Positions 1,909-24,000 are shown, numbered from the stretch's first letter. The stretch is 24,000 nt of DNA from Pseudoxanthomonas kaohsiungensis (GCF_010211765.1 NZ_PDWO01000002.1:139581-163580); one strand, 5' to 3'. Numbers and translations: made by a program. The notes: generated by a model from the sequence alone, not told the origin.

Positions 1909-1920
1909 CCTGATCCGACC

Positions 1921-1945: not shown

Positions 1946-1957
1946 CCGCAACGCGGA

Positions 1958-1987
1958 ATGACACCGGTTACCGTCCTTCGCTAGAAT
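1958..1987 (+). promoter_or_regulatory. Candidate sigma-70 promoter for kduI (ATGACA-N18-TAGAAT) with an internal 9-bp palindrome CGGTTACCG
   Basis: -35-like ATGACA lies at 1958-1963 and -10-like TAGAAT at 1982-1987, 64 nt upstream of the kduI ATG. The palindrome CGGTTACCG (1965-1973) sits in the spacer and could be an operator. Confidence 0.4.
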
Positions 1988-2051
1988 GGTCCCAATACAA
2001 GGCCAGAGCCGCCCCCGCGTCGCTGGCGCACCGCCCCAGGAGCCCGATCCG

Positions 2052-2900: not shown

Positions 2901-2921
2901 CGCCCCGCAGGCGCAACGGGC

Positions 2922-3026
2922 GTAGAGCGGGGCTTGCCCCGCTGCTATTCCAAGCACGTACGAACAGGCCGGAGCCCAAACAGCCGGCTTCTCCACACGG
3001 CTCCAGCGGGGCAAGCCCCGCTCTAC
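2922..3026. repeat. Pair of inverted GTAG-type REP-like palindromic elements (SMAG/REP class) in the kduI-kduD spacer
   Basis: GTAGAGCGGGGCTTGCCCCGCT lies at 2922-2943 and its inverted copy AGCGGGGCAAGCCCCGCTCTAC at 3005-3026. Each is itself a hairpin (AGCGGGGC-NN-GCCCCGCT) with a terminal GTAG/CTAC tetranucleotide. Confidence 0.6.
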
Positions 3027-3038
3027 AGAGGATCTGTC

Positions 3039-3797: not shown

Positions 3798-3892
3798 ACC
3801 CCACGTCGGGGCGCGCTCCGGCCGCGGTTGCGCATCCGTCGTGCCGCCGGATGCACTCTCTCCGCATCCGCGGCCGGAGCCAGTACCGACCC

Positions 3893-3930
3893 AGCCCCGC
3901 CCGGCACAGCCGTCAGCGGGGCTTCTTTTT
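3893..3930 (+). terminator. Candidate intrinsic terminator after kduD
   Basis: AGCCCCGC (3893-3900) pairs with GCGGGGCT (3916-3923) around a 15-nt loop, followed by TCTTTTT (3924-3930). A second long imperfect hairpin (CTCCGGCCGCGG...CCGCGGCCGGAG, about 3825-3879) lies just upstream. Confidence 0.35.
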
Positions 3931-3943
3931 GCGAGTGACCACC

Positions 3944-5083
3944 ATGCACAAGCGCCTGCTGCCGATCGCCCTGGCTTTCGCCGCCCTCGCCTCGCTTGCC
4001 AGCGCGGCCGACGCATGGGCCGGGCCGCGCCGGGTGTTCATCGCCGGCGACTCCACCGCCGCCGAGTACGGACCCGAGCGCGCGCCGCGCAATGGCTGGG
4101 GCCAGCAGCTGCAGGGCTTCCTCGACCCCGCGGCCTTCGAGGTGCGCAACCACGCGATGGGCGGGCGCAGTTCGCGCAGCTTCATCGAGGAAGGCCGGCT
4201 GGAGCCGGTCGCGCGCGAGCTGCGCAAGGGCGACGTGCTGCTGATCCAGTTCGGCCACAACGATGCCAAGTACGAAGATCCGCGGCGCTACAACGAGCCC
4301 GGGCAGGCCTATCCGCAATGGCTCATGCGCTACGTGTCCCTGGCGCGCGAGCGCGGCGCGACGCCGGTCCTGCTGACTCCGGTGTCGCGGCGCGTCTGGG
4401 ACTTCGGCTCGCTGCTGGACACCCACGCCCGCTACACCCAGGCGGTGCGTGAACTGGCCGCGCGCGAACAGGTCGCACTGATCGACCTCAACGCCAGCAC
4501 CACCGACTGGCTGCGCGCGCTCGGCGACCAAGCGTCCAAGGCGTACTTCGAGCACGTGCCGGAGCGCGAGGTGCGCGACGACACCCACTTCAGCGTCGCC
4601 GGTGCGACCATGGTCGCCTGCCTGGTGGTGCGCGACTGGAAGGCGCTGGACCCGGCGCTGGGCGCACACGTGGTGCGCGACACCGACTGCGGTGCACCGG
4701 CCAGCGCGCGCGCCGACCTGGCCGCGCAGAAGAATCCGTCTTCGGTGGTGCACGAGCGCGACCTTGCGCGGCAGCAGCCGGGTCCGCATGGCGGCGCGGG
4801 CACCACCACCGCCTATCCGCTGTTCGCCGAGGCGCCGGGGCTGTCCTTCGTGATGCGCAAGCGGGTCCTGCACAAGGGCGCCGGTATCGGCCTGCACCAG
4901 CACCACAAGGACGAGATCTACTACGTGCTCGCCGGCCGCGGGCGCTACGTGCTCGATGGCAAGGTGCATGACGTGGCCGCCGGCGACGCCATGCTGACCC
5001 GCCCCGGCAGCACCCATGCGATCGAACAGGTGGGCGAGGACGACCTGGTCCTGCTGTTGGCCTACCCTGCTTCACCTCGCTGA
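3944..5083 (+). CDS. Secreted SGNH/GDSL hydrolase (rhamnogalacturonan acetylesterase-like, CE12-type) fused to a C-terminal cupin domain
   Basis: 379 aa. Signal peptide MHKRLLPIALAFAALASLASAADA. SGNH blocks are present: FIAGDSTAAEY (block I Ser), GGRSS, FGHNDA and DDTHF (Asp-x-x-His). The C-terminal ~100 aa carry cupin motif 1, GAGIGLHQHHKDEIYYVLAG, which fits G-x5-H-x-H-x3-E-x6-G, and motif 2-like GDAMLTRPGSTHAIEQ. Confidence 0.8.
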   Translation: MHKRLLPIALAFAALASLASAADAWAGPRRVFIAGDSTAAEYGPERAPRNGWGQQLQGFLDPAAFEVRNHAMGGRSSRSFIEEGRLEPVARELRKGDVLLIQFGHNDAKYEDPRRYNEPGQAYPQWLMRYVSLARERGATPVLLTPVSRRVWDFGSLLDTHARYTQAVRELAAREQVALIDLNASTTDWLRALGDQASKAYFEHVPEREVRDDTHFSVAGATMVACLVVRDWKALDPALGAHVVRDTDCGAPASARADLAAQKNPSSVVHERDLARQQPGPHGGAGTTTAYPLFAEAPGLSFVMRKRVLHKGAGIGLHQHHKDEIYYVLAGRGRYVLDGKVHDVAAGDAMLTRPGSTHAIEQVGEDDLVLLLAYPASPR

Positions 5084-5101
5084 ACAACTCATCATGCTGA
5101 A

Positions 5102-5122
5102 GGACAGACAGGACGTCTGTCC
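5102..5122 (+). terminator. Hairpin just after the esterase-cupin stop; possible terminator without a U-tract
   Basis: GGACAGAC-AGGAC-GTCTGTCC forms an 8-bp perfect stem with a 5-nt loop, starting 19 nt after the stop codon. No T-run follows. Confidence 0.3.
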
Positions 5123-5318
5123 TGTCCTCCTGGCCACCAGCGTTTTCCCGGATACAGCCGTCATTCCAACCTGCGCGGCTGGCAACACGCTTTTCTCCGG
5201 GGGAACACCATGGCACGCCGAGATCGTCCGCCCTATCCGATCCCTTCACCGAATCGGACCCGCCGCGATGCGGCCGCGGGCGGACACTGAGGTGCAGCGC
5301 CGATGGCACGCGGCCGGC

Positions 5319-5348
5319 TTGCCCGGGCGCCTTTCATCCACCTATTAA
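5319..5348 (+). promoter_or_regulatory. Candidate sigma-70 promoter for the EBP gene (TTGCCC-N18-TATTAA)
   Basis: TTGCCC at 5319-5324 and TATTAA at 5343-5348 lie in the lower-GC spacer about 100 nt upstream of the ATG at 5452. Confidence 0.3.
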
Positions 5349-5451
5349 CCGCCTGTCACGAAGCGTAGGCAGGCTGCGCCGACGGCCGTCCGCAAGGATG
5401 TCCGTCCCGCAAACGTCCCGTTCGCCGGGATGGCACCAGGAGCAAGGAACT

Positions 5452-6762
5452 ATGGCGGCAGTTCCCGAGATCCGACCGCGTTGCATGATCTGGCTGGGTC
5501 GCCCGGAGGCACAGGAGCGCGATGTCCTCGCCGCTGCCGGCTGGGATGTCCGCGTCATCGAGGAGCCGCGCGGAGCAAGGATCGGCCTGCGGGGTGGCGA
5601 CCGCGTCGCCGCGCTGCTCGACCTCCGCCATGCCGACGAGGCCTGGTCGGCGGCGATGCTCGACCTGCTCGCGCCGCACTCGGACCTGCCGCTGGTGATC
5701 CTGGGCGATGCCGACATGCCGCCCCGGGGTTGCCTGCTGCAACTGCGCGAGCCGCTTGACCTGGTGCAGATCCAGCGCCTTGCCAAGATCGTCGACGGCG
5801 ACACTCGGCCCAGCGTGGGCAATGGCATCGACTGCCTGGTCGGCTCGAGCACGGCGATGCTCGCCGTGCATGCGAACCTGCACAAGTTCGCGCCGGTCGA
5901 ATTGCCGGTGCTGGTGACCGGCGAGACCGGTACCGGCAAGGAGCTGGCCGCGCGCGCCCTGCACGAAATGTCGTCGCGGCGCGGCCGCCCCTTCATCGCG
6001 GTCAACTGCGGCGCCCTGCCGGCCAGCCTGGTGCAGGCCGAACTGTTCGGCCACGAGAAGGGCGCGTTCACCGGTGCCGCGGCGCGCCGGATAGGCCTGT
6101 TCGAGGCCGCCGACGGCGGCACCATCTTCCTGGACGAGATCGGCGACCTGCCCCTGGACGCGCAGACCAACCTGCTCCGCGTCCTCCAGGAAGGCACGAT
6201 CGAACGCGTCGGCAGCCACCATTCGATCCACATCGACGTGCGCGTGGTGGCCGCCACCCATGTCGACCTGGAAGAGGCGATCGCACACGGCCGCTTCCGC
6301 CAGGACCTGTTCTACCGCCTCGATGTCCTGCGCCTGCACATGCCACCGCTGCGCGAGCGGGGCGCCGACGTGGAACTGCTGGCCCGGCACTTCCTGGCCC
6401 AGTTCCGCGAACAGCACCGGGTGCGCGCCCGCGGCTTCGATGCGTCCGCCCGCCGGCAGATGCATTCGCACCGGTGGCCGGGGAATGTCCGCGAGCTGAT
6501 GAACCGGGTGCGGCGCGCGGCCGTGGTCAGCGAAAGCGAGCTGATCGACGACCAGGCGCTGCAGCTGTGCGATGGCATCGCGACCGGCGCCGACGCCCTG
6601 GGCGAAGTCCGGATCCATGCCGAGCGCGAGGCCATCTTGGCCACCCTGCGCGATTCGGGCTTCAACGTCAGCGAATGCGCGCGACGCCTGCGCGTTTCGC
6701 GAGTCACCGTCTACAGGCTGTGCAAGAAGCACCAGCTCGAGCTCGAGGCACTGCGGGTGTAG
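5452..6762 (+). CDS. Sigma-54-dependent transcriptional activator (bacterial enhancer-binding protein) with a degenerate N-terminal receiver-like domain
   Basis: 436 aa from the ATG at 5452, with AGGAGCAAGGAAC just upstream; the listed start at 5398 is possible but has no SD. AAA+ core has Walker A GETGTGKE, the sigma-54 contact loop GAFTGA (HEKGAFTGAAARR) and Walker B IFLDEIGD. C-terminal Fis-type HTH is FNVSECARRLRVSRVTVYRLCKKH. The N-terminal ~120 aa look REC-like but lack the usual acidic pair and conserved Lys. Confidence 0.9.
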   Translation: MAAVPEIRPRCMIWLGRPEAQERDVLAAAGWDVRVIEEPRGARIGLRGGDRVAALLDLRHADEAWSAAMLDLLAPHSDLPLVILGDADMPPRGCLLQLREPLDLVQIQRLAKIVDGDTRPSVGNGIDCLVGSSTAMLAVHANLHKFAPVELPVLVTGETGTGKELAARALHEMSSRRGRPFIAVNCGALPASLVQAELFGHEKGAFTGAAARRIGLFEAADGGTIFLDEIGDLPLDAQTNLLRVLQEGTIERVGSHHSIHIDVRVVAATHVDLEEAIAHGRFRQDLFYRLDVLRLHMPPLRERGADVELLARHFLAQFREQHRVRARGFDASARRQMHSHRWPGNVRELMNRVRRAAVVSESELIDDQALQLCDGIATGADALGEVRIHAEREAILATLRDSGFNVSECARRLRVSRVTVYRLCKKHQLELEALRV

Positions 6763-6862
6763 GAGCCGGGGAGACCGGACATTCGTCCGGGACAAGGCGC
6801 CCGTGGCTGGAAGCTACGGCAAGGCCGGCGCCTACGCGCTCACGCCGCCTGCAGGCTGCGCC

Positions 6863-8230
6863 CTACAACGAGTAGGGCACCCGGAAGCCGAGGGTGAAGT
6901 CAGGCGCGTCCGGCGTCAGGCCGATGCCGAGGAGGCCGACCATGGTGGCGTGGTCGCTCAGCGCGTAGGTCACGCCCAGGTTGAACAGGGCCGAGTTCGC
7001 GTCGCTGCCGATGACCTTGTTCCAGGGCTGGCCGTCGTAGCGCATCCGCGCACGGGCGCTGAGCCGGTTGCTCAGTGACATGCTGAAGCTGGTCCGCTCG
7101 TTGAAGGCGAACGCCACGCCCGCGCCGAAGTAGAACGAATCGCCCAGCTTCACGTCGCCCGGATTGACCGTGTCCGGATTGTTGTCGATGTCGTCGAAGC
7201 TGGCCTCGAACGAGTAGGTATAGCCGATGTTGCCGTACAGGATCGCCGGGTCGCTGGTCTTGACCGCGGAGACGCCGACGCTGGCCTGCCATGCGCCATT
7301 GCCGGTGGGCTGTTCGTCGGGGACGGCGAAGCGGATGAAATCGTCGTCGTCGCGCTCGAGCACCGTCCACGGGATTCCGTAGGGCTCCTGGCCGGTCGGC
7401 GCGGTGATGCCGACGTTGAGCACGGTTTCCGGACGGCCGTTGTTCTCCGGCAGCATCAGGTAGTTGCCGCTGACGGTGATGTCGCCCAGGCCGCTGCCGG
7501 TGGTTTCCTCCTGCGCGATCGCTGCCGCCGCGCCGCCGGCACCGCCCTTCTGGTAGACGGTCTTGCGCCAGAGGTAGGGCGCATCCAGGTTGAGGGTCAG
7601 CTTCGGCGTCACGCCCCAGCGCGCGGCGAAGTTGTAGTTCATGGTGTCCGACTCGACGTTCTCGATGGCGATGTTGCCGAGGAAGATCGCGTCCAGGGCG
7701 AGGAAGCCATTGAGGGTGAGCTGCTTGCGGTCGTAGCGGTTGTAGGTGAGGCCGTTCTCGATCACCAGGCGCTGGTTGAACAGGGTCCGGGTCGCCTGCT
7801 TCACATCGGCGACGCTGCGCGGCAACTCCTTGCGCGCGGCCTCCGCTTCGGCGGCGGTGCTGGCATAGCCGGCCTGCGACGGTGGCGGCGGTTCGGCGGC
7901 GGCGGCGGCCGCGGGTGCCGGGGCGGCCACGATCGGCGCGGCAACGGTCGCGGTGCCCACCGCACCCGGGGTGGCGGCCGGAACCTTGCCGGCCAGGCGC
8001 GCCTGCAGGGCCTGCACCTGCATGTCCAGCTCGCGCAACCGGCGCACTTCCTGCGCGTAGGCGGCCTTCAGTTCGGCGAGGTCTTCGGTCAGCTGGCGCA
8101 GCTCGGCTTCGTCGGCCGGTGTGCTGGCCGCCTGCGCGCACGCAGGGGGTACGAAGGACGCGGTGGCCAGGGCCGAGACCACGGCCAGGCGCAATGCAGT
8201 GGAAGGTCCCGCCGTAGTCTTCCTGCTCAC
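6863..8230 (-). CDS. fapF: FapF-type outer-membrane amyloid secretion channel: signal peptide, coiled coil, Ala/Pro linker and beta-barrel
   Basis: 455 aa from the GTG at 8230, with AAGGAGAGA 7 nt upstream; upstream in-frame codons overlap fapE. Signal peptide ends ...ATASFVPPACAQAAS. Heptad-like coiled coil is ADEAELRQLTEDLAELKAAYAQEVRRLRELDMQVQALQARLAG. An Ala/Pro-rich linker leads to a C-terminal domain of alternating amphipathic strands with Gly/aromatic residues (YNFAARWGVTPKLTLNLDAPYLW ... GFRVPYSL). It is the last gene of a fapABCDE-like series. Confidence 0.8.
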   Translation of the reverse strand: MSRKTTAGPSTALRLAVVSALATASFVPPACAQAASTPADEAELRQLTEDLAELKAAYAQEVRRLRELDMQVQALQARLAGKVPAATPGAVGTATVAAPIVAAPAPAAAAAAEPPPPSQAGYASTAAEAEAARKELPRSVADVKQATRTLFNQRLVIENGLTYNRYDRKQLTLNGFLALDAIFLGNIAIENVESDTMNYNFAARWGVTPKLTLNLDAPYLWRKTVYQKGGAGGAAAAIAQEETTGSGLGDITVSGNYLMLPENNGRPETVLNVGITAPTGQEPYGIPWTVLERDDDDFIRFAVPDEQPTGNGAWQASVGVSAVKTSDPAILYGNIGYTYSFEASFDDIDNNPDTVNPGDVKLGDSFYFGAGVAFAFNERTSFSMSLSNRLSARARMRYDGQPWNKVIGSDANSALFNLGVTYALSDHATMVGLLGIGLTPDAPDFTLGFRVPYSL

Positions 8231-8258
8231 CCTTGTCTCTCCTTGTCGGGCTGCCGCC

Positions 8259-9077
8259 TCAGTAACCGATCGCGATGCCCCGGCTGAGGGCGATCGCCTG
8301 CGCCACGTTCTGGCCCAGTATGGTGCGTCCCTGCGAGGTGCTGCGGACCACCTCCAGCTCCATCCAGTTGCTGGCCTGCTGTCCGTCCGCGGCCAGCTGG
8401 ATGGTCTGGCCCATGCCGCTGCGGCTGATCCACTGCTCGACCGCGCCTTGCCCATCGATCTGCAGCAGGATGCGGGCCGCATTGTTTTCCAGCTGGGCGA
8501 CGGCGTTCATGCCGTTGACCGATGTGCTGGCGACCATCGACTGCGCGGCGGCCGGAGCCGACGAGGCCGCCGTCGCCGAGGCTGTGCCCGCCGACGGGGA
8601 CGGTTCGTCGCGGATGGTGATCCTGGCCGTGTTGTGGGCGAGGTTGCCGTCGCCGGCGACCTGCACGCTCTGGGTCACGCCGGTCACGTTGGCCAGGCCG
8701 GCGTTGTCGATCTCGCGCTGGCCCGAGGGCGTCGGTGCGGGCGCATCGACGGCGGTGATGCTCACATGCGGCTGGAAGGTCACCACGGGCTTGTCGCCCT
8801 GCCGGGCGTCCATGGTCACGGTCATGGTGCTGGTCAGCTGCTGGCCGGTCTGGGTCTGCCAGGTCGACACCATGGTGACGCCGAACCAGGCCACGGTGTT
8901 GCTGCTGACCGTGTAGCGGCCGCGCATGTCGCCCATTTCCTCGTCGGTCAGTTCGGTCAGTCCGCTGGCGGCCGGCGCGTTCGTGGCCTGCGCTTCCTGC
9001 ACCTGCGCCCAGGCAGGCAACGCGGCCGGTGCGGTCGCCAGTCCTACGGCGATGCAGAGGGTGCGTTTTCCGTTCAT
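8259..9077 (-). CDS. fapE: FapE-like secreted accessory protein of the Fap amyloid system
   Basis: 272 aa with signal peptide MNGKRTLCIAVGLATAPAALPAWAQ. It sits between the C39 peptidase (fapD) and the barrel (fapF), 12 nt after the fapD stop. The assignment rests mainly on operon position and size, not on a motif I can verify by eye. Confidence 0.6.
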   Translation of the reverse strand: MNGKRTLCIAVGLATAPAALPAWAQVQEAQATNAPAASGLTELTDEEMGDMRGRYTVSSNTVAWFGVTMVSTWQTQTGQQLTSTMTVTMDARQGDKPVVTFQPHVSITAVDAPAPTPSGQREIDNAGLANVTGVTQSVQVAGDGNLAHNTARITIRDEPSPSAGTASATAASSAPAAAQSMVASTSVNGMNAVAQLENNAARILLQIDGQGAVEQWISRSGMGQTIQLAADGQQASNWMELEVVRSTSQGRTILGQNVAQAIALSRGIAIGY

Positions 9078-9089
9078 GGTCGTGTCCTT

Positions 9090-9800
9090 TCAGAACAGGT
9101 CGGCATGGGTGAAGCCGAAGTCGAGCAGCTCGGCGTCCGTGATCGGTCCCTGCCGCGCGTACAGCGCCCGCGCACTGGGCTTGGTGCTGGGCTGCAACAA
9201 AACCGTGTTTCGATCGAAGTCGGAGCCGATAACGACGAAAACCGCGCGGGAGGGCCACGCGGCCAGGAACTCGGGCAGGGGAACGACCCGGTTGCCCAGG
9301 ATCGGATCGCCGATTTCGACCATTTCGCCGGAGACCTGCTTCAGCACGACGAAATGACGGAAGCCGTTCACGTCCATCAGCACCAGGCCGGGCACGCGCA
9401 GACTGCGCAGCCGCGCTTCGTCGACGCGGTAACCGCGCCCGCGCATGCCCAGCGACTCGACGTAACGCTTGATGTCGAGCAGGGAGAATCCGCGCTCCTT
9501 GACCACCTCGGCGTCGGCCAGCGACAGCATGCCCTCGATGACCGTGGTCTCGTTCGCATCCAGGTGGTAGGCGTAGCGCAGGATGGTCGCCAGTGCCGCG
9601 GCGCCGCAGCTGTAGTCGGTCTGCTGGCGCACGAGGTTGCTGAAGCGTGCCTCGCGCATGCTGACCACCGGCGCATGGTAGAGCGCGCCATTGGGCAGGA
9701 CGCCGGTGAAGGCCACGTCCGCGGCCTGAAGCGGACGCGGTGAAGCGGCGCACAGCAACAGCATCAGCAGCATCAGGCTCGATCGCGGGAAGCGAGGCAT
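9090..9800 (-). CDS. fapD: FapD-like periplasmic C39-family cysteine peptidase
   Basis: 236 aa from the ATG at 9800, with signal peptide MPRFPRSSLMLLMLLLCAASPRPLQA; the longer listed ORF from 9926 has a non-signal Pro/Gly-rich N-terminus. C39 catalytic Cys context is QQTDYSCGAAALATILRY, and a downstream His lies in NGFRHFVVLKQV. It is stand-alone, with no ABC-transporter domains. Confidence 0.85.
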   Translation of the reverse strand: MPRFPRSSLMLLMLLLCAASPRPLQAADVAFTGVLPNGALYHAPVVSMREARFSNLVRQQTDYSCGAAALATILRYAYHLDANETTVIEGMLSLADAEVVKERGFSLLDIKRYVESLGMRGRGYRVDEARLRSLRVPGLVLMDVNGFRHFVVLKQVSGEMVEIGDPILGNRVVPLPEFLAAWPSRAVFVVIGSDFDRNTVLLQPSTKPSARALYARQGPITDAELLDFGFTHADLF

Positions 9801-9854
9801 GGAGGCATGTCCCTGTTGCGGCGCTTGCGGGAATGGGCCGCCGTGGGAGTGGAA

Positions 9855-9920
9855 GCCCCGTCCCGCGGGGGAGGCGGGACGGGGCGTTCCGTGAGTTCCC
9901 GGCCACGGCGGATGGCCGGG
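9855..9920 (-). terminator. Two strong GC hairpins in the fapC-fapD spacer; candidate attenuator or mRNA-stabilising structures after the major subunit gene
   Basis: On the minus strand, CCCGGCCA-N7-TGGCCGGG (9898-9920) has an 8-bp stem. GCCCCGTCCCGC-N7-GCGGGACGGGGC (9855-9885) has a 12-bp perfect stem followed by TTCC. Both lie in the 165-nt gap between the fapC stop (9966) and the fapD start (9800). Confidence 0.5.
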
Positions 9921-9965
9921 AGTCACTCTTTCATCCCTTGCGGGACATGGTTTCGTCGTTACCGA

Positions 9966-11489
9966 TCAACCACCACCACCCGTGCCGCCGCCACCGCCAC
10001 CGGTGGACGGCTGCGCCACGGCCATCGACAGGCTGTTGGCCTGCTGGTTGCCGGTGCCGGCCGACACGTTCACGCCGATGTTGCCGGACGCGCCCGAGAA
10101 GGCGCTGCCGGACAGCGTCGCGCTGTTGGTCGCGGCGGCTACGGTTTCGACGGTCGGGACCGCGAGTACGCCGGACAGCGACGCGCTCAACTGGTCCGGC
10201 CCCAGCTCGCCGAAGCTGATGGTGCCACTTTCGTCCGTATCGAAGGCGATGCCACCGACGCCGTCGGCGTACGGATTGTCGACCGCGTTCTGGATGTCGC
10301 CGTCCATGTCGAGGTGGCCGGTCGAATCCCCGTTCGGATGATCGAGCTCGCCATCCCAGCTATCCAGGTAGAAGTTGTCCTTCTGGTAGGCGCTTCCCCT
10401 TCCCGCATAGGTCACCCGGCCGAGGCTGCCGGTGATGTCACCCTGCAGGTTGATTGCGACTTCCCTGGTGCCTTCCTGGGTCAGCGGCGCATTGGAGACC
10501 GTATTGCCCTCGGAGATCTGGTTCGAGCTGACGCTCGCCTGGGCATAGGCACTGGTGGCGACCGAGGCTGCCAGCGCGTTCTTCTGGGCATTGTTGTTGC
10601 CGGACGTCACATTGACGCCGATGTTGCCGCTGGCGCCCCCGAACGCGTTGCCGCCAACGCTGGCGTCGTTGGCCACGCCCACGTTCACGGTCTGGTTGCC
10701 CGTGCCCTTCTGGTTGACGAACACTTCCGCATCGGCCAGGCCGAAGGAGAAGCTGGCATCGGCGGCCGAGAGTGCAGCCGCATTGTCCTGCACGTTGTTG
10801 TCGCCGGCAGCGGCGTTGAACTGCAGGTTTCCGGAGGCACCCGACGCGGCGTCTTCATCGATCGAGGCGTCATTGGTCAGCTGGGTGTTGACCCCGACGT
10901 TGCCGGACACCGACTGGCGGTTGTCGATCACGGCGATCGCAGCCGAGTCGATGTCGATGTTGCCGCTGAGGGTGGGTTCGCCGCTGAAGGAGATGTCGGA
11001 CGACAGCGAGAGGTCCTTCTCGAGGGTCACCGAGGTGTTGTGTTCCTCGCGATCGATGTTGGAATCGACATTGACCTGCTCGTCATGGGTGATGACGGTC
11101 TGGTCGTAGGTGAGCGATTCGTTGAGCTCCTGGTTGACCGTCAGGTTGGCTTCCTGGTTGACCGTCGTATTGAACTCTTCGTTGATCGCGGTATTCCATT
11201 CGAAGGTGTCGCTGTAATCGGTGCTGTAGTTCTCGGTATTGGTCACGTCCGAGGTGTAGTTGTCGGTGTAGCTGGTGCTGCTGGTAGCGTCGTTGGTCGT
11301 GGTGTTCGTGGTGGTGTTGGTGGTGGTATCGGTGTTCGTCGTGGTGTTGGTTTCGTAGTTGCGCGTGTCGTCGATGGTGACGTCCTCGTCCCAGACGATG
11401 ATGGTTTCAGTGGTCTCGGCATGAGCCACGGACGCAGTCGCCGCCGCCACTGCCATGGCAAGCACGGTCCACTTCAGATTCCTTTTCAT
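9966..11489 (-). CDS. fapC: FapC-type major functional-amyloid subunit, unusually long, with an N-terminal acidic Thr/Asn-rich extension
   Basis: 507 aa with signal peptide MKRNLKWTVLAMAVAAATASVAHA. It has three 37-aa imperfect repeats of the Fap signature (A-x-x-G-A-S-G-N-I-G-V-N-V-x-A-G-x-x-N-x-Q-x-N): DASIDEDAASGASGNLQFNAAAGDNNVQDNAAALSAA, DASVGGNAFGGASGNIGVNVTSGNNNAQKNALAASVA and SATLSGSAFSGASGNIGVNVSAGTGNQQANSLSMAVA. Good SD (GAGAGGACACC) before the ATG. Confidence 0.85.
   Translation of the reverse strand: MKRNLKWTVLAMAVAAATASVAHAETTETIIVWDEDVTIDDTRNYETNTTTNTDTTTNTTTNTTTNDATSSTSYTDNYTSDVTNTENYSTDYSDTFEWNTAINEEFNTTVNQEANLTVNQELNESLTYDQTVITHDEQVNVDSNIDREEHNTSVTLEKDLSLSSDISFSGEPTLSGNIDIDSAAIAVIDNRQSVSGNVGVNTQLTNDASIDEDAASGASGNLQFNAAAGDNNVQDNAAALSAADASFSFGLADAEVFVNQKGTGNQTVNVGVANDASVGGNAFGGASGNIGVNVTSGNNNAQKNALAASVATSAYAQASVSSNQISEGNTVSNAPLTQEGTREVAINLQGDITGSLGRVTYAGRGSAYQKDNFYLDSWDGELDHPNGDSTGHLDMDGDIQNAVDNPYADGVGGIAFDTDESGTISFGELGPDQLSASLSGVLAVPTVETVAAATNSATLSGSAFSGASGNIGVNVSAGTGNQQANSLSMAVAQPSTGGGGGGTGGGG
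10014..10124 (-). repeat. FapC amyloid repeat R3 (aa 456-492)
   Basis: SATLSGSAFSGASGNIGVNVSAGTGNQQANSLSMAVA. Confidence 0.8.
10557..10667 (-). repeat. FapC amyloid repeat R2 (aa 275-311)
   Basis: DASVGGNAFGGASGNIGVNVTSGNNNAQKNALAASVA. Confidence 0.8.
10761..10871 (-). repeat. FapC amyloid repeat R1 (aa 207-243)
   Basis: DASIDEDAASGASGNLQFNAAAGDNNVQDNAAALSAA aligns position by position with R2 and R3. Confidence 0.75.
11292..11351 (-). repeat. Imperfect 12-nt tandem repeat encoding (Thr-Thr-Thr-Asn)n inside the fapC N-terminal extension
   Basis: It translates to TNTTTNTDTTTNTTTNTTTN (aa 47-66). The plus strand shows reiterated gttggtggtggt-like units. Confidence 0.6.
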
Positions 11490-11532
11490 GGTGTCCTCTC
11501 TCTCTTGCTCTTTGGTTGGTTGGATTACCGCC

Positions 11533-12195
11533 TCACGGGCCGGGCGGGAGCGACAACGTCAGGACGTTGCCGGTCTCGTTGGCCGAACCCGCGATCTGAT
11601 TGAGCTGGAAAACGCCTTCGAACCCACGCAGCGCGGTGGCTTCCACTGCCACCTTGCGACTGGCGGTCCTCCCCGCCGGGTTGAAGGCGGTTTGCCGCTC
11701 CGCCGACGCGGCAACGCCACTGGACAGCTGGCTGTCCGGCGTTTCGCGTATGCCCTGTTGCGCCAGCACCATCGCCACCGCGTTGTGTTCCGCGTTGCCG
11801 CTGCCGCTGGCCTGGTTGATCGATGCGATGCCGCTGGCGCCCGCCAGCGCCGAGCCGCCGATGGTCGCGCTGGCGGCCACTGGCACGTCGTAGACGTCGT
11901 CGCTGCGTGCCTGGGAGGTACTCACCTGCACCATGGCCGCGCCGTCGCCGATGGCGATCGCGCGCAGGTTGGACTGCTGGTTGAGGTCGCCGGCCGCCAT
12001 GTTCACGCCGATGGCGCCGCTGCTGCCGGCCAGCGCGCGATCCGCGATCCGGGTCTGCGCCAGGTAGCCGAGCATGTCGGCGTAGTCATCGGCGGCACGC
12101 GCAGGGCCGGCTGCGAGCCAGGCGGCGCAGGCCAGCGCCAGCAGTGGCTGCCAGATGCCCCGTGCGGGGCGAGGGACGGCGACCGGCCTGCTCAC
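11533..12195 (-). CDS. fapB: FapB-type minor or nucleator amyloid subunit
   Basis: 220 aa from the GTG at 12195, which overlaps the fapA stop (GTGA). Signal peptide is (M)SRPVAVPRPARGIWQPLLALACAAWLAAGPARA. Three Fap-type repeats are ALAGSSGAIGVNMAAGDLNQQSNLRAIAI, SALAGASGIASINQASGSGNAEHNAVAMVLA and ALRGFEGVFQLNQIAGSANETGNVLTLSL. The listed 394-aa ORF upstream of the GTG is a shadow of fapA. Confidence 0.75.
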   Translation of the reverse strand: MSRPVAVPRPARGIWQPLLALACAAWLAAGPARAADDYADMLGYLAQTRIADRALAGSSGAIGVNMAAGDLNQQSNLRAIAIGDGAAMVQVSTSQARSDDVYDVPVAASATIGGSALAGASGIASINQASGSGNAEHNAVAMVLAQQGIRETPDSQLSSGVAASAERQTAFNPAGRTASRKVAVEATALRGFEGVFQLNQIAGSANETGNVLTLSLPPGP

Positions 12196-12686
12196 GGACC
12201 GGTTCCCTGGTTGCCACCCAGCGGGAACTGGGACAGTGCGCCGGTGACGGTCGAGCCGATGCCGCGGGTGGCGCCGGTCACCGCACCCGTCGCGCCGCCG
12301 ACGCTGCGGCTGAAGCCGCTGCCTGAGAAGACGCTGCTGTCGCCCGTCAGCCGACCCATCGATCCCTGCAGCGCCTGGCTGGTCATCTGCTCGGGCATGG
12401 TGACGCCGCCACGCGCGTCCAGTTGGCCCGACGCCATGCCGGCGATCTCGTCGTCCGACATCTCCCCGGTGCCCAAGGCATGGTCGATCTCCCGGTTCGG
12501 GGTCGGATCGACGATCAGGGCGATACTGGGCGGCGCCTCGCGATAGGCGTGGCGGGCGTTGACGTCCCGCAACAGCACCATCTCGCCGCGCTCCGGATGC
12601 ACGCCGACGTGGGCATCGGCGGCGCGTACGGCGGCCGGAGCCGCCAGCAAGGCGAACAAGGGCAGGCAGACAAGGCGTCGTGACAT
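12192..12686 (-). CDS. fapA: FapA-like small secreted, Gly/Ser/Thr-rich and probably disordered protein; first gene of the fap operon
   Basis: 164 aa from the ATG at 12686, with GGGGA 9 nt upstream. Signal peptide is MSRRLVCLPLFALLAAPAAVRA. The C-terminal half is low-complexity (GSGFSRSVGGATGAVTGATRGIGSTVTGALSQFPLGGNQGTGP). Assignment is by position and size; FapA is poorly conserved. Confidence 0.55.
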   Translation of the reverse strand: MSRRLVCLPLFALLAAPAAVRAADAHVGVHPERGEMVLLRDVNARHAYREAPPSIALIVDPTPNREIDHALGTGEMSDDEIAGMASGQLDARGGVTMPEQMTSQALQGSMGRLTGDSSVFSGSGFSRSVGGATGAVTGATRGIGSTVTGALSQFPLGGNQGTGP

Positions 12687-12721
12687 GGATGCAGTCCCCG
12701 CGTATAGGCGGAGACAACAGC

Positions 12722-12736
12722 GCACGTCCCGTGCCA
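12722..12736 (-). promoter_or_regulatory. Sigma-54 (-24/-12) promoter upstream of fapA
   Basis: The minus strand reads TGGCACGGGACGTGC, against the consensus TGGCAC-N5-TTGC. GG and GC are at exactly the canonical spacing, and the element ends 36 nt upstream of the fapA ATG (12686). Confidence 0.65.
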
Positions 12737-12754
12737 AGCCCTTTTTGTTTTATT

Positions 12755-12767
12755 TATCAGTCGCTTG
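12755..12767. promoter_or_regulatory. IHF-like site with A/T tract just upstream of the sigma-54 promoter
   Basis: The plus strand reads TATCAGTCGCTTG, against WATCAANNNNTTR, flanked by the only strongly AT-rich tract in the region (CTTTTTGTTTTATTTATCAG, 12741-12760). This is about -45 to -57 relative to the predicted start. Confidence 0.3.
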
Positions 12768-12914
12768 CGTTCTAACGCGAGGTTGCGCCCGTCCCGCTGT
12801 GTTACATCCGTGAAGCGGCGCGGACATGTGTTCCGGCCGCCAGAGCCCGCCACTACGGCCTCCGCCATGCTGTTTCAGGAGTGATACACCCCGTGCGGCG
12901 GGTTTACAGTCGGC

Positions 12915-13997
12915 TCAGAACAGCTCGCGCTGGGCAGGCGCGGCCAGTGGCGGGACGAACCGGCTGCAGTCCAGCGCCGCCAGGGACTGTGCGGGATAGC
13001 CGGCACGGCGACGGGCGAGCGCGAAACGCCGCTCGAGCAGGTCGGCATAGGGGCCGCGGCCGCGCATGCGCGCGCCGAACCCGGACTCGTAGTCCCGCCC
13101 CCCGCGCATCTGGCGCACGGCCGCCATGACCCGCGCGGCGCGTTCCGGCATGTGCGCCTCGAGCCAATCGCGGAACAGCGGGGCGACCTCGTGCGGCAGG
13201 CGCAGGAGCACGTAGCCGGCGCTTGCGGCGCCGGCGCCGCGCGCCGCCTCCAGCACCGCCTCCAGCTCGTGGTCGTTGACCCAGGGGATCGCCGGGGCGA
13301 ACAGCACGCCGACCGGGACGCCGGCATCGTGCAGCCTCCGCATCGCCCGGAGCCGGGCATGCGGCGCCGCCGCGCGCGGCTCCAGGCGCGCCGACAGCTG
13401 CGGATCGAGCGTGGTCACGGAGAAGTACACGTGCACCAGCCCCAGCGCCGCCAGGGGCTGCAGCAGGTCGAGGTCGCGTTCGACCAGGGCATTCTTGGTG
13501 ACGAGGCTGAAGGGGTGGCGGCACTCGAGCATGACCTCGACCAGCCGGCGGGTCAGCTCCAGGCGGCGTTCGACCGGCTGGTAGGCATCGGTGTTGATCC
13601 CGAGCGCGATCGGGCTGGGGCGGTAGCCGGGCCGGGCGAACTCGCGCCGCAACAGTTCCGGGGCGTTGGTCTTGGCGAAGATCTTCGTCTCGAAGTCCAG
13701 CCCGGGAGACAGGTTGAGGTACGCATGCGACGGCCGGGCGAAGCAGTAACTGCACCCGTGCTCGCAGCCGCGGTAGGGGTTCACCGACTGGGAGAAGCCG
13801 ACGTCCGGCGAGCGGTTGCGGGTGACGATGCTGCGGGCGCTCTCCTCGTGGACCTCGGTCCTGGGCCGCGACGGGTCCGGGCCCGCCTCCGGCTCCGCCA
13901 GCGGCGCCCAGCCGTCATCGGCCGCCTCGACGGTGGTCGTTTCGAATCGCCCTGGCAGGTACTGCCGCGAGCCGCGGCCCTTGATCGTGTCGGCCAT
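12915..13997 (-). CDS. Radical SAM protein (PA0069/SplB-like family)
   Basis: 360 aa with the CxxxCxxC cluster in [22 protein letters not shown]. The remainder is consistent with a TIM-barrel radical SAM fold. Confidence 0.85.
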
Positions 13998-14102
13998 GGT
14001 CCAAGGCTACGCCCGCGGCGTCGCGCCAGGCGCGATGGCGGTCGCGCACTGGGGCGACGTTCATCACCGGGCCTGCGCCGCGCGCTCGCCTAGAATCCGC
14101 CC

Positions 14103-15545
14103 ATGACCTATTTCGAAACGGCCTGGGCCTGGCTTGGCGAGCTGCCCGCCCTGGGGCTCTACCTCCTCCTCGCCTGGCTGGCATACGTGCTCGGCCTGAG
14201 CCTTTGGATCATCCTGCAGAAGCGGGAGCCGGTGGCCACGCTCAGCTGGGTGATGTCGCTGGCATTGCTGCCCTATGTCGGCTTCCTGATCTACTTCCTG
14301 CTCGGCCCGCAGAAGATCCAGCGCCAGCGGCTGCGCCGCGGGCGGTCGCGTTCGGGCCTGGAGCAGTTCTCCACGCCCAATGGCGACAAGCCCGAATGCC
14401 TGGAACTGGCGCGGCTGGGCCAGGCCACCACGGGCCTTCCGCCTTCCAGCGCCACTTCCGCGCAGTGGCTGGTCGATGGACACGCGAAGTACGAGGCGCT
14501 GTTGTCGGCCATCGCCGATGCCCGCCACCACGTGCACCTGGAGTACTACATCTGGGCACCGGACAAGACCGGCTTGCGCCTGCGCGACGCGCTCGTGGAC
14601 CGCGCCCGCGAAGGGATCCAGGTGCGCTTGCTGCTCGACGCGGTCGGTGCCGGCGGCATGCGCCGGCGCCACCTGCGGCCGTTGCTGGACGCCGGCGCGG
14701 AGATCGGCTGGTTCCATCCGACGAAGTTCAGGCCGTTTACGCGGCCGTGGCTCAACCTGCGCAGCCACCGCAAGATCGTCGTGGTCGACGGCCGGGTGGG
14801 CTTCGTCGGCGGGATCAACGTCACCGACGAGGAGAACGAGGCATTGCGGACCGATGCGTTCCGCGACCTGCACCTGCGCCTGGAGGGCCAGGTGGTGCGC
14901 AGCCTGCAGCTGGTGTTCGTGGAAGACTGGGTCTATGCCGCCGGCTGCGACCCGCGCGCATTCGGCGAGGCCGAATACTGGCCGCAGCTGGAGGACGGCA
15001 CGATCGGCGCGCAGGTCCTCGTGTCCGGCCCGGATTCGTCATGGGAGGCGATCCACCGCCTGAAAGTGGCGGCGATCCACGAGGCCAGGCGGCGGGTCTG
15101 GCTGGTCACGCCCTACTTCGTGCCGGGCGAGGCGGCGCGCATGGCGCTGACCTCGGCAGCGCTGGGCGGCCTGGACACGCGCCTGCTGGTGCCGCGCCGG
15201 AGCGACTCCCGCCTGGCCACGCTCGCAGCGAGGTCGTACTTCGACGAGCTGCTCAAGGCGGGCGTGAAGGTCTACGAGTACGGGCCTCGGATGCTCCACA
15301 CCAAGGCCCTGCTCGTCGACGAAGACCTGTGCATCGTCGGCAGCGCGAACTTCGACCACCGCAGCTTCAGGCTCAACTTCGAGATCTCGGCGATGTTGCG
15401 CGACCAGGACAGCTGCCAGGCGCTGGAGCGGCTGCTCGGGGGCGAGTTCGACCAGGCGGAGCGGGTCCGCGTCGACCGGCCGATGGGCCTGTGGCGGCAC
15501 CGCCTGCCGGAAGCGTTCGCCCGCCTGCTCTCGCCATTGCTGTAG
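14103..15545 (+). CDS. cls: Cardiolipin synthase (phospholipase D superfamily)
   Basis: 480 aa. Two N-terminal TM helices are followed by two HKD motifs, [19 protein letters not shown] and [23 protein letters not shown]. Confidence 0.92.
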
Positions 15546-15665
15546 CGGCACGACGGGCGGATCGCGGCGACGGACGCGCGGGTGGCAGGGGCGCCCGCCG
15601 AAGCGGCATCATGACCGCGCCCGGCGGCATCTGCGCCGCCAGGCCATCTTCCGGGGAGGTCCGCG

Positions 15666-15947
15666 ATGCACTGGTTCTACCTGCTCCTGTCCTTTGGCGC
15701 GCTGCTGCTGGCGATCACCACCGTGCACGGCTGGCTCCTCCTGCTGTCGTTGCTGGCGGCGCTGGGATTCTTCCTCGCCTGGATCCGCGGCTGGTATCTC
15801 GACCGGATCGGCGGGCGCCAGCAGAACGAGCTGGCGATGATCGACCCGGCCGAGCTGCGCCGGCTGCGCGAGCTGGCGGAGGCGCGCAAGCGCGAGGCCG
15901 CCCCCGCGAGCGCGCCGCCGCAGGGGCCGGCACCGCCAGCCGCATGA
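15666..15947 (+). CDS. Small two-TM membrane protein of unknown function with a charged C-terminal tail
   Basis: 93 aa, [44 protein letters not shown]... A strong SD (GGGGAGG) lies 7 nt upstream. Its stop overlaps the pdxJ start (ATGA at 15944-15947), implying translational coupling. Confidence 0.55.
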
Positions 15948-16708
15948 GCACGCACCTCAGCGTCAACGTCAACAAGGTCGCCGTGCTGCGCAACTCGCGC
16001 GGCGGCCGCGAGCCTGACGTACTGGCGGCCGCGCTCGCCTGCCTCGAGGCCGGCGCCCAGGGCATCACCGTCCACCCGCGCCCCGACCGCCGGCATATCG
16101 TGGCCGAGGACCTGCCGCCGCTGGCCGCGCTGGTGCGACGGTTCGGCGTGGAACTGAACATCGAAGGCAATCCGTTTGCGCCACCGCGTCCCGGCTATCC
16201 CGGCCTGCTCGCGCTGTGCGAGCAGGTTCGCCCCGCGCAGGTGACCCTGGTGCCGGACAGCGACGGCCAGCTGACATCCGACCATGGCTTCACCTTCGAC
16301 GGCGACAACGCGGCGCTGGCGTCCCAGGTGGCTGCGTTCAAGGCACTGGGCTGCCGGCTGAGCCTGTTCGTCGATGCGGGCGTCGCCGGCCTGGAGAAGG
16401 CTGCCGCGCTCGGCGCGGACCGCATCGAGATCTATACCGGGCCGTTCGCCGAGGCCTTCGCCGCAGGCGATGCAGCCAGCGAGCTGGCGTTGTGCGCCGA
16501 TACGGCGCGGCGCGCGCGGGTCGCCGGACTGGGCGTCAATGCCGGGCATGACCTGTCGCAGGCGAACCTCGGCGCGTTCCTGGCCCAGGTGCCGGGCGTT
16601 CTGGAGGTCTCGATCGGCCACGCACTGATCGGCGAAGCCCTCTACGACGGCCTGGATGCTACCGTCCGCGCCTACCTGGCCATCGCGGCAGGCGCCGACC
16701 CGGCCTGA
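15944..16708 (+). CDS. pdxJ: Pyridoxine 5'-phosphate synthase
   Basis: 254 aa from the ATG at 15944. N-terminus is [27 protein letters not shown]...[13 protein letters not shown], and the C-terminal GVNAGHDL and EVSIGHALI motifs are typical of PdxJ. Confidence 0.92.
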
Positions 16709-16744
16709 CGCCACGTCGCTCGCGGCGGCCAAGGCCGCAAAAGA

Positions 16745-16768
16745 AAACGCCGCCCGGAGGCGGCGTTT
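16745..16768. terminator. Bidirectional intrinsic terminator between convergent pdxJ and exbD2
   Basis: AAACGCCGCC-CGGA-GGCGGCGTTT forms a 10-bp stem. The minus-strand transcript is followed by TTTTCTTTT and the plus-strand one by TTTCA. Confidence 0.7.
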
Positions 16769-16830
16769 CACGGCGCTGGGTCCCCGGTCGCCGCCGCTGC
16801 AGGGGCGGCTTCCGTGGACGTCACCGTCTA

Positions 16831-17244
16831 CTACGGCTGGACGAAGTTGATCTTCTTCATGTCCGCGTTCTTGGCCGAAGCGAGCACCCGCGCCATGACC
16901 TCGTACTCCGAGTCGGCGCTGGCGTCGATGCGCAGCTCCGGCTGGTTGGTCGGGTCGCGCTGCACTTCGGTCTCCATCATCTGCGGCAGCGCGGTCACCG
17001 AGACCGGGCTGTTGTTCCAGAAGATCTGGTTGGACGCGTCGATGCGCAGCTCGATCGGCGGCGGCGGCTCCTTCGTGACCGGCGGCGGGTTGATCACCCG
17101 CTGCGGGAGGGCCACGTCGATCGGGTAGGTCATGATCGGCGCGGTCACGATGAAGATGATCAACAGCACCAGCATCACGTCCACGAGGGGCGTGACGTTG
17201 ATGTCGGCCATGGGGCCCTTGCCGGAACCGGAACTGAAAGCCAT
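16831..17244 (-). CDS. exbD2: ExbD/TolR-family biopolymer transport protein (second copy)
   Basis: 137 aa, [36 protein letters not shown]... It is the last gene of a tonB-exbB-exbD-exbD series, the arrangement described for Xanthomonas campestris. Confidence 0.9.
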
Positions 17245-17247
17245 GGC

Positions 17248-17670
17248 TTACTGACCCTTCTCTTTGGTGGCGACGAAGCCGATGTCCAGCATGCCGTTGC
17301 GCTGCGCGATCTGGGTGATGTCGTTGATCGTGCGCATCTTCGTGGTCTTGTCACCACGAAGGTTCAACTTGGGCTGGGGCACCTGCTGCGCGCTGCTGGA
17401 CAGGCGCGACTCGAGGATCTCGCGCGAGATCTCCTCGTCGTTCCAGAACAGCGAGCCATCCTCCTTCACCGAGATGGTGATGGGCATGACCCGCGGTTCG
17501 TCCTCGTCCTTGGCGACGACGTCCGTTTCCGGCAGCTCGATCTTCACTTTGTGCTGCATCAGCGGCGCGGTGATGATGAAGATGATGAGCAGCACCAGCA
17601 TCACGTCCACGAGGGGCGTGACGTTGATGTCGGCCATCGGGCCGCCGCTGTTGTCAGAACTGAAGGCCAT
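17248..17670 (-). CDS. exbD1: ExbD/TolR-family biopolymer transport protein (first copy)
   Basis: 140 aa, [36 protein letters not shown]... It lies 3 nt upstream of exbD2. Confidence 0.9.
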   Translation of the reverse strand: MAFSSDNSGGPMADINVTPLVDVMLVLLIIFIITAPLMQHKVKIELPETDVVAKDEDEPRVMPITISVKEDGSLFWNDEEISREILESRLSSSAQQVPQPKLNLRGDKTTKMRTINDITQIAQRNGMLDIGFVATKEKGQ

Positions 17671-17714
17671 GCGGGCTCTCCGTTACGTGCCTGGATCGTT
17701 CTTCGGGTACCGGC

Positions 17715-18470
17715 TCAGCGAACGCGCGAGCCGGTGGCGAAGAAGTCGTGCAGATCGTGGGCGAACGAATCGAACTTGGCGATCGTCGAGCTGTTGATCT
17801 TGCTGAAGAAGTTGTAGGCGAACACGGCCGGGATCGCGACGAACAGGCCGATCGCGGTCATGATCAGCGCTTCACCCACCGGGCCGGCGACGGCGTCGAT
17901 CGAGGCGGAGCCGGTGGCACCGATCTTGATCAGCGCGCCGTAGATGCCCCACACGGTACCCAGCAGGCCCACGAAGGGAGCGGTCGCGCCGACGGTCGCC
18001 AGCAGCACCATGCCCGACTGCAGCCTGGAGCTTTCGCGGGTCACGGCCTGGCGCAGGGCGCGATCGACGAACTCCGAGCGGGTCAGGGTCTCGCCGAGGC
18101 CGGCACCGGTGCCTTCCGAACGCTGGTGGTGGGCGGCGGCCTGGGCGGCGTCCAGGGCGATCTTGGAGAACGGCTCGCTGCGCGGCTGCTCTTCCATCAC
18201 GCGGATGGCTTCCTGGGCGTTCGGGGCGTCCCAGAACGCGTTGACGACGCGGTCCGCGTACGACTTCAGGCGGGTGTTCTTGATGGCGTTGAAGATGGTC
18301 CAGTACCAGGACGCGGCCGACATGAAGACCAGCGTCAGCAGCACGATCCAGGAAACGGCGAATTCGCCCGGATTGGCGATCATCTCGGACAGAAGGTGGT
18401 CGAAGCCCATCTGCGTGAGGGCCGATGCGTTGCCCCCGGCGGCGGCGGCGATGAAGAGTTCCTGCAGCAT
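17715..18470 (-). CDS. exbB: ExbB (MotA/TolQ/ExbB proton-channel family)
   Basis: 251 aa with three TM helices and the conserved C-terminal block APFVGLLGTVWGIYGALIKIG...VAGPVGEALIMTAIGLFVAIPAVFAYNFF. Confidence 0.9.
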   Translation of the reverse strand: MLQELFIAAAAGGNASALTQMGFDHLLSEMIANPGEFAVSWIVLLTLVFMSAASWYWTIFNAIKNTRLKSYADRVVNAFWDAPNAQEAIRVMEEQPRSEPFSKIALDAAQAAAHHQRSEGTGAGLGETLTRSEFVDRALRQAVTRESSRLQSGMVLLATVGATAPFVGLLGTVWGIYGALIKIGATGSASIDAVAGPVGEALIMTAIGLFVAIPAVFAYNFFSKINSSTIAKFDSFAHDLHDFFATGSRVR

Positions 18471-18528
18471 GACGCTTACCTTTGGTTTGATTGGTGGAGA
18501 AGGAAGGCGGAAACGCTAGGCCCGGTTG

Positions 18529-18552
18529 CCGTGGCGGCGGACACCGCCACGG
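18529..18552 (-). other. Perfect 9-bp-stem hairpin in the tonB-exbB spacer
   Basis: CCGTGGCGG-N6-CCGCCACGG lies 11 nt after the tonB stop. There is no U-tract, so it is possibly an attenuator or processing/stability element. Confidence 0.4.
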
Positions 18553-18562
18553 AGTGCGGACA

Positions 18563-19228
<666 letters not shown>

Positions 19229-19260
19229 GCGCCTAGTAACTCAGGTGTGGGGCCAGGCCG

Positions 19261-22369: not shown

Positions 22370-24000
<1,631 letters not shown>

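Follow-up and report, generated by a model that had tools for sequence, protein, structure and literature searches.

We analyzed a 24-kb stretch of DNA from Pseudoxanthomonas kaohsiungensis (NZ_PDWO01000002.1:139581-163580; 68.5% GC), here called the window, which carries on its minus strand a complete operon for the Fap amyloid, a major component of the biofilm matrix, in the order fapA-fapB-fapC-fapD-fapE-fapF. Our results indicate that a sigma-54 (RpoN) promoter at 12736-12722 (minus strand), with a predicted start near 12710, very probably drives fapABCDEF, and that an activator gene next to the operon, similar to brfA of Pseudomonas fluorescens, serves this promoter. We put the probability of this reading at about 0.88. 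An initial annotation, made from the sequence alone, had proposed a sigma-54 promoter with an IHF-like site for the operon; conservation in related loci, the linked activator gene and the experiments published for P. fluorescens support that proposal.

The gene upstream of fapA (12192-12686; ATG at 12686-12684) is a co-directional radical-SAM gene of the PA0069 family (13997-12915), and the promoter region sits inside the 228 nt that separate the two. Direct reading of the minus strand gave TGGCACGGGACGTGC at 12736-12722, composed of TGGCAC (12736-12731), the spacer GGGAC (12730-12726), and GTGC (12725-12722), with the GG of the -24 element at 12735-12734 and the GC of the -12 element at 12723-12722. 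It fits TGGCAC-N5-TTGC at nine of the ten specified positions with exact spacing of GG and GC, one helical turn apart, which confirmed the near-consensus motif already noticed, with canonical geometry and one departure. The motif does lie just upstream of the fapA ATG, as had been stated; the distance on the coding strand measured 35 nt (12721-12687) instead of the 36 nt given. Standard sigma-54 geometry would place the transcription start at 12710, 12 nt past the C of the -12 GC, and the leader would then be about 24 nt long, with GGGGA (12699-12695) as the likely ribosome-binding site.

The bare motif is unremarkable in 24 kb, and a test therefore needed its context and related sequences. 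We assembled 80 fap loci (L001-L080), one per species, chosen through an alignment of FapD; they span Pseudoxanthomonas, Stenotrophomonas, Luteimonas, Lysobacter, Xanthomonas, Dyella, and Rhodanobacter. Their genes were placed by tblastn, and the upstream regions were anchored on the T of TGGCA, from which the distances below are counted unless the predicted start is named. A coding homologue of fapA was located in 79 of the 80 loci, with 33-73% identity (about 50% in most), and the synteny of the fap genes was kept throughout. Apart from motifs, the intergenic regions could not be aligned: the information profile rose to sharp peaks at the motifs, and elsewhere each column carried about 0.05 bits.

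TGGCA[CT]-N6-TGC was present upstream of fapA in 79 of the 79 loci in which this gene was located, about 20-30 nt before its probable start in the loci displayed. The spacer and the flanks of the element varied among loci, and GG and GC were invariant. Positions that the search pattern did not cover were also kept, namely a T before TGGCA (65/80) and a G after TGGCAC (77/80), so the consensus can be extended to TTGGCACG; in the window, the conserved T is at 12737. TGGCA[CT]G-N5-TGC occurred 93 times on both strands of the 2.5 Mb formed by the window and the 80 loci, and 77 of these occurrences were the fapA site, with a background expectation of 0.0015 per 230-nt upstream region on one strand. 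Because it is conserved in all fapA-bearing loci amid variable flanks and against this low background, we regard the -24/-12 element as a phylogenetic footprint and not as a chance match. Two Stenotrophomonas loci had a second TGGCATGCACCGTGC match about 500 nt upstream of fapA (L073, about 4698; L077, about 4654, plus strand), which might be the sigma-54 promoter of a neighbouring gene.

Two features of RNA or DNA pairing were seen around the core promoter. A hairpin, UCUCCGC...GCGGGGA (-10.8 kcal/mol), is possible in the leader (12714-12687, minus strand), and its 3' arm would cover the ribosome-binding site; part of its 5' arm precedes the predicted start, so that it perhaps is never transcribed. 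CUCC/GGAG pairing with differing inner stems recurred in many of the loci, but when the 80 leaders were folded and compared with shuffles, the mean z was only -0.68, with 13 of them below -2. Owing to the G at -15, the core of the window is also palindromic (GCACG-GGA-CGTGC, 12722-12734, minus strand); only 13 of the 80 loci, Pseudoxanthomonas-type ones among them, have the full 5-bp palindrome.

The likely main enhancer lies beyond the coordinates that the initial annotation covered. This putative upstream activating sequence is an 18-bp inverted repeat, TGTATCActccTGAAACA, of the form TGT-N12-ACA (12871-12888, minus strand). It reads TGTATCA-N4-TGAAACA and spans about -178 to -161 relative to the predicted start (-152 from the anchor), inside the range of roughly 80-200 bp from the promoter expected of a sigma-54 activator sequence. 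A TGT-N12-ACA was found at -148 to -170 in 70 of the 80 loci, with the 18-bp consensus TGTWWCA-N4-TGWWACA; C6 and G13, which the search pattern had left free, were invariant in all 70 palindromes. A weight matrix raised the count to about 78 of the 80 loci, and in the 24 kb of the window its sole match of at least 8 bits was 12888-12871, which scored 26.8 bits. The distal sites occupy two registers, -152 and -164, and their offset of about 11-12 bp is consistent with the same face of the helix being kept. The palindrome at 12871-12888 is probably the binding site of the BrfA-like activator.

Two further positions bear parts of the same motif. The proximal one, CGCTTCAcggaTGTAACA (12800-12817, minus strand; about -107 to -90 from the predicted start), has an intact right half, TGTAACA (12806-12800), and a degenerate left half, and the 18-mer of the window reaches only 6.1 bits. 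Across the 80 loci, half-sites cluster at -75 to -66, where two overlapping patterns gave 45 and 48 matches, and full 18-mers of at least 10 bits occur at about -81 in some 20 loci; Pseudomonas has a complete palindrome at -81/-80. The distal half-site TGTAAAC (12902-12908, minus strand) is situated 6 nt past the stop codon of the radical-SAM gene; comparable half-sites are grouped between -190 and -175 across the loci and were seen in close relatives. An imperfect repeat, ACATCCG-N10-CGGACAT (12804-12827), had been suggested as a speculative activator site. It is present, with 5/7 symmetry as described, but is not conserved in close relatives, and we rejected it as an enhancer; one of its arms merely overlaps the conserved TGTAACA half-site by 3 nt.

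Next to the promoter there is an AT-rich region, the only one nearby, as the initial annotation had pointed out: the GC content is 0.40-0.48 across 12720-12779 versus 0.6-0.88 in the surroundings. An A/T-rich tract (12737-12754; minus strand aataaaacaaaaagggct) separates the -24 element from an IHF-like core, TATCAGTCGCTTG (12755-12767, plus strand), which by direct reading matches WATCAANNNNTTR with one mismatch and spans about -45 to -57 relative to the predicted start. On the plus strand, the 5' side of this core is the A/T tract CTTTTTGTTTTATT, as in canonical IHF sites. Read in the orientation of fap, the motif is YAA-N4-TTGATW, the reverse complement of WATCAANNNNTTR. When no more than one mismatch was allowed, it was found at -30 to -32 in 33 of the 80 loci, versus 2 of 80 for a control region, and many further loci carry it at that position with two mismatches; the copy in the window is at -31. 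The information profile of the 80 loci had peaks at -31 to -29 and at -24 to -19 over the background, and an enrichment in A/T at -18 to -7 was kept across loci. The site already singled out at 12755-12767 was borne out: most loci keep it at one set spacing from the -24 element, and it recurs at -32 in Pseudomonas.

The sigma-54 promoter might also do without IHF at this position: CAA-N4-TTGAT and the A/T tract could be an intrinsically curved A-tract, an UP-like element contacted by the alpha subunit of the polymerase, or a site for some other regulator. The tract and core (12737-12767) directly adjoin the -24 element, at a shorter distance than in many textbook IHF sites, and the roughly one third of loci without the motif still have the promoter and the enhancer. 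Against this, the match to WATCAANNNNTTR with its 5' A/T tract has the canonical IHF layout, and it holds a fixed register, between enhancer and promoter, in most Lysobacterales loci and in Pseudomonas. We consider this alternative unlikely, although it deserves some weight. IHF appears to be a well-supported part of the promoter design, and its involvement at the fapA promoter of the window is fairly likely. Bending by IHF would not be universal, because the site is missing in about one third of the loci.

The candidate activator is encoded on the plus strand at 5452-6762, convergent with fapF, and its gene ends 100 nt from the end of fapF (6863, minus strand). The open reading frame opens at 5398, and the probable start Met at 5452 gives a protein of 436 amino acids. 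It contains Sigma54_activat (E 4e-70), AAA_lid_14, and HTH_8 domains, the last a Fis-type helix-turn-helix, and its GAFTGA, Walker A, and Walker B motifs are intact. No receiver-domain model matched its 125 N-terminal residues. The Pfam VpsR domain PF20161 was detected in 24 of 30 orthologues of the activator, with a best E of 1e-12. A library-wide search with the N-terminal domain recovered no more than 27 proteins, most of them fragmentary, and none from Pseudomonas. The activator gene was linked to fap in 72 of the 80 loci, and in about 65 of the 80 it was convergent and downstream of fapF. Six loci, all of the Stenotrophomonas maltophilia type, had it upstream of fapA in divergent orientation (L029, L056, L061, L064, L068, and L070). 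These six loci lack the IHF-like site and the AT tract but retain the distal palindrome and the -24/-12 element.

A counterpart of this system has been studied experimentally in P. fluorescens PF07, and the sequence comparison extends it to the Lysobacterales. In PF07, 5' rapid amplification of cDNA ends placed a -24/-12 element upstream of the fapA start, and the transcripts of fapA-E fell in rpoN and brfA mutants (Guo et al. 2022, PMC9207406). In that strain, brfA directly follows fapF in reverse orientation and has an open reading frame of 1,326 bp (PMC9207406). A later paper that cites the original work presents BrfA as an enhancer-binding protein with direct sensing of cyclic di-GMP (c-di-GMP) (Guo et al. 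2024, Microbiol Res 287:127864, cited in PMC13101488), and BrfA-type factors are said, again at second hand, to be widespread in Pseudomonas (Guo et al. 2024, via PMC13101488 and a 2026 preprint). The control of an amyloid operon by RpoN, which the initial annotation brought forward, is supported; as a new idea it was overstated, since it had been published for Pseudomonas in 2022 and 2024.

Pseudomonas loci (L081-L083) were reached from the FapF sequence of PDB entry 5o65 through FapF proteins of the P. fluorescens group to the contigs that encode them. The fetched loci have fapABCDEF followed by a convergent gene for a protein of 441 amino acids with VpsR and Sigma54_activat domains. The gene at L081:9705-11030 would be brfA itself, because of its position and because the length of its product, 441 amino acids, agrees with the published 1,326-bp reading frame. 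BLASTP gave 51% identity between the activator of the window and this Pseudomonas protein over 316 residues of the AAA+ and helix-turn-helix regions (E 2e-100). Their N-terminal domains are too diverged for BLAST and were aligned by profile alone: hhalign gave a probability of 100% over 407 columns starting at residue 25, which takes in most of the N-terminal domain. Like the activator of the window, BrfA combines a VpsR-type N-terminal domain with a sigma-54 AAA+ domain and a Fis-type helix-turn-helix.

The two systems also share their layout. Both have the fapABCDEF operon with a -24/-12 element upstream of fapA, and in both the activator gene is adjacent, reverse, and downstream of fapF (L081 and L083). 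The Pseudomonas fapA is preceded by cGGCACgccttcTGCt (cGGCAC-N6-TGC). Farther upstream come an IHF-like site, located at -32, and two palindromes, TGTTTCAgggtTGAAACA (-81) and TGTTTCAtcacTGATACA (-139); these palindromes are of the type TGTTTCA-N4-TGAWACA, and one of them is in the -81 register. The elements thus stand at 0, -31, -81 (a half-site), and -152 in the window and at 0, -32, -81, and -139 in Pseudomonas. We conclude from this comparison that the enhancer motif, the -81 register, the position of the IHF-like site, and the core promoter are common to two orders. There are differences as well. The host of the window belongs to another order, the Lysobacterales, and has 68% GC; its -24 element (TGGCAC) is nearer to the consensus than that of the P. 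fluorescens-group loci (CGGCAC). The anchor lies about 50 nt from the start codon, versus 69-70 nt in Pseudomonas; the distal palindrome is at -152 instead of -139, and the proximal site of the window is degenerate. The experimental validation belongs to PF07, whereas the Lysobacterales system is known here from its sequence.

On these grounds, we propose the following mechanism. Sigma-54 RNA polymerase would form a closed complex at 12736-12722, and the BrfA-like protein (5452-6762) would remodel it in an ATP-dependent manner, so that the promoter opens. The activator would bind the 18-bp palindrome at about -170, with weaker sites at about -100 and -200, and an IHF-type bend at about -50, formed at the WATCAR-N4-TTG core and the A/T tract, would loop it onto the promoter. 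The dependence on RpoN in this organism, the binding of the activator to the palindromes, and the binding of IHF are what we infer; what the sequences themselves show is the conserved elements in their fixed geometry, the linkage and domains of the activator, and the homology with the Pseudomonas module. The input would be c-di-GMP, high levels of which would switch on production of the amyloid matrix. The case for this signal is an analogy to VpsR and to the BrfA protein of P. fluorescens, and for the Lysobacterales lineage we hold it to be slightly favoured as the activating one.

Several observations weigh against a sigma-54 promoter of this design. The -15 position is a G in the window and a C in most of its relatives, versus T in the consensus. 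TGGCACG-N5-TGC occurred once in the window, where 0.28 occurrences would be expected in 24 kb, and at least one copy was present in 23 of 100 shuffled versions of the window. The IHF-like site is missing from the S. maltophilia-type, Rhodanobacter, and Dyella loci that make up the third mentioned above. The N-terminal domain of the activator in the window reaches the VpsR model only at E 0.22. The genes rpoN and ihf are not within the 24-kb window; by what holds for the Xanthomonadales in general, we take both to be present in the source genome. Finally, the 80 loci are kin, so part of the conservation is ancestry; this is offset by FapA proteins that are only 33-73% identical and by flanking columns with about 0.05 bits.

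The second of these points bears on a further explanation, in which TGGCAC-N5-GTGC is a coincidence in a GC-rich genome and fap is expressed from a weak sigma-70 promoter or by read-through from the radical-SAM gene. Scanned on its own, the motif is indeed near chance: TGGCAC-N5-TTGC with at most one mismatch gave three matches in the window versus 2.46 expected. In its context the comparison with random occurrences that the initial annotation had called for comes out differently, since 77 of the 93 matches are fapA sites and the element stands at the same place in 79 of 79 fapA-bearing loci, its GG and GC invariant and its spacers variable. In favour of read-through, the upstream gene is co-directional and no strong terminator precedes fapA; however, only a minority of the loci, mostly Pseudoxanthomonas-type, have this neighbour, and the element is always present. 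TTAGAA-17-TAAAAC in the AT tract looks, by eye, like a weak sigma-70 promoter, but a scan of 12500-13100 for sigma-70-like promoters found no site that passed. We consider this explanation very improbable, and a basal sigma-70 or read-through input would supplement the sigma-54 promoter and not replace it. The idea that GCACG-GGA-CGTGC and a T-rich stretch form an intrinsic terminator or RNA hairpin of the radical-SAM transcript, the sole terminator-like match of a scan (12734-12722; 5-bp stem, 3-nt loop, tail GCTGTTGTCT), was rejected as hardly credible, because the pairing is not conserved across the 80 loci (complete in 13, reduced in 54 to the three pairs inherent in GCA...TGC, with no covariation seen in the stem), what is conserved is sequence (GG, GC, TTGGCACG), the T-run is poor, and the element also occurs without the radical-SAM gene upstream.

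The sigma-54 promoter of fapA and its activator can be compared with other known systems. VpsR of Vibrio cholerae (PDB 7v2b) resembles the activator of the window in joining a VpsR-type N-terminal domain to an NtrC-type AAA+ domain and a helix-turn-helix. It controls biofilm matrix genes as a c-di-GMP-dependent master activator. VpsR is not known to have a working GAFTGA loop and acts together with sigma-70 polymerase; the activator of the window, in contrast, retains GAFTGA and is paired with a -24/-12 promoter. A review consulted for the c-di-GMP contacts of VpsR gave no contact residues. The nifH promoter of Klebsiella and the Pu promoter of Pseudomonas putida have, in the same order as the window, an activator palindrome, an IHF site, and a -24/-12 core. 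IHF acts between enhancer and promoter at many sigma-54 promoters, and the NifA site TGT-N10-ACA and the TyrR boxes TGTAAA-N6-TTTACA recall the TGT-Nx-ACA form of the enhancer. The enhancer of the window differs in its N12 spacing with conserved C6 and G13, and the activator, unlike NifA or XylR, is of the BrfA/VpsR type. The IHF-like site also differs from that of classical IHF-assisted promoters in being unusually close to the -24 element.

The remaining fap genes are all on the minus strand: fapB (about 12183-11533, its start not fixed), fapC (11489-9966), fapD (9800-9090, which contains Peptidase_C39), fapE (9077-8259), and fapF (about 8230-6863). All six products, the FapA chaperone included (chaperone_FapA, E 4.6e-9), matched their NCBIfam models below the equivalog cut-offs, and the Fap proteins can therefore be considered diverged; FapF also matched PDB 5o65 at E 5e-79. 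The best matches of FapD were Pseudoxanthomonas proteins (87-97% identity), by which the host of the window is a Pseudoxanthomonas-like member of the Lysobacterales. FapC is unusually long (507 amino acids), and its model match is limited to residues 179-491; its N-terminal region is Thr/Asn-rich and of low complexity (TNTTTNTDTTTNTTTNTTTND...), and a glycine run is found at the C-terminus (GGGGGGTGGGG).

The flanking genes (16831-19240 on the minus strand and 2-5083 on the plus strand) are common housekeeping and transport genes, and none is evidently linked to fap. They include TonB-ExbB-ExbD-ExbD (19240-16831, minus strand) and a GDSL-lipase/cupin fusion (3944-5083), and the neighbours also comprise a PLD-type cardiolipin-synthase-like gene (14103-15545), a TPR protein, an M48 peptidase, a CAAX protease, a DctM fragment, a LacI-family regulator, and KduI. 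A scan of the whole 24-kb window with Rfam gave no match. gyrB is at the end of the window (22370-23998, minus strand), and in the complete genome of Pseudoxanthomonas sp. NC8 (L006) the homologous fap locus occupies positions 1221-17877 of the chromosome record, so that in the Pseudoxanthomonas-type group the fap cluster may lie near the replication origin.

The fap operons of Stenotrophomonas and Rhodanobacter have been known since 2013 (PMC3792158), and a 2018 review named the regulation of Fap an open point (PMC6173800). This regulation was uncharacterized until 2022. Our literature search, on RpoN and biofilm in S. maltophilia and on fap in Stenotrophomonas, found no report on the regulation of fap in Xanthomonadales. 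What was known already is the control of Fap by RpoN and a BrfA-type activator; what we add is the extension to the Lysobacterales, the shared palindrome, and the IHF-like site at a fixed position. The enhancer motif and the IHF component may be previously undescribed.

The conservation of these elements indicates that the RpoN/BrfA-type circuit of P. fluorescens operates throughout the Lysobacterales, an order that includes Stenotrophomonas species relevant to cystic-fibrosis infection. Even odds can be given to a broader view, in which the fap operon, the BrfA-type gene, and the cis layout constitute one self-contained module of Pseudomonas and the Lysobacterales, inherited or transferred as a unit. 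Besides the -24/-12 core, its cis layout would comprise an IHF-like site at a fixed 31-32 nt before the -24 element and two to three TGTWWCA-N4-TGWWACA enhancers. The comparison supplies candidate binding sites for the activator and for IHF, as well as a rule for annotation that links a fap operon with a convergent VpsR/BrfA-type gene, a TGT-N12-ACA enhancer, and a -24/-12 promoter. If this reading is true, the amyloid matrix of Stenotrophomonas, Pseudoxanthomonas, Lysobacter, and their relatives would be under a dedicated switch from c-di-GMP to sigma-54, and this switch would be predictable from sequence, also in the opportunist S. maltophilia.

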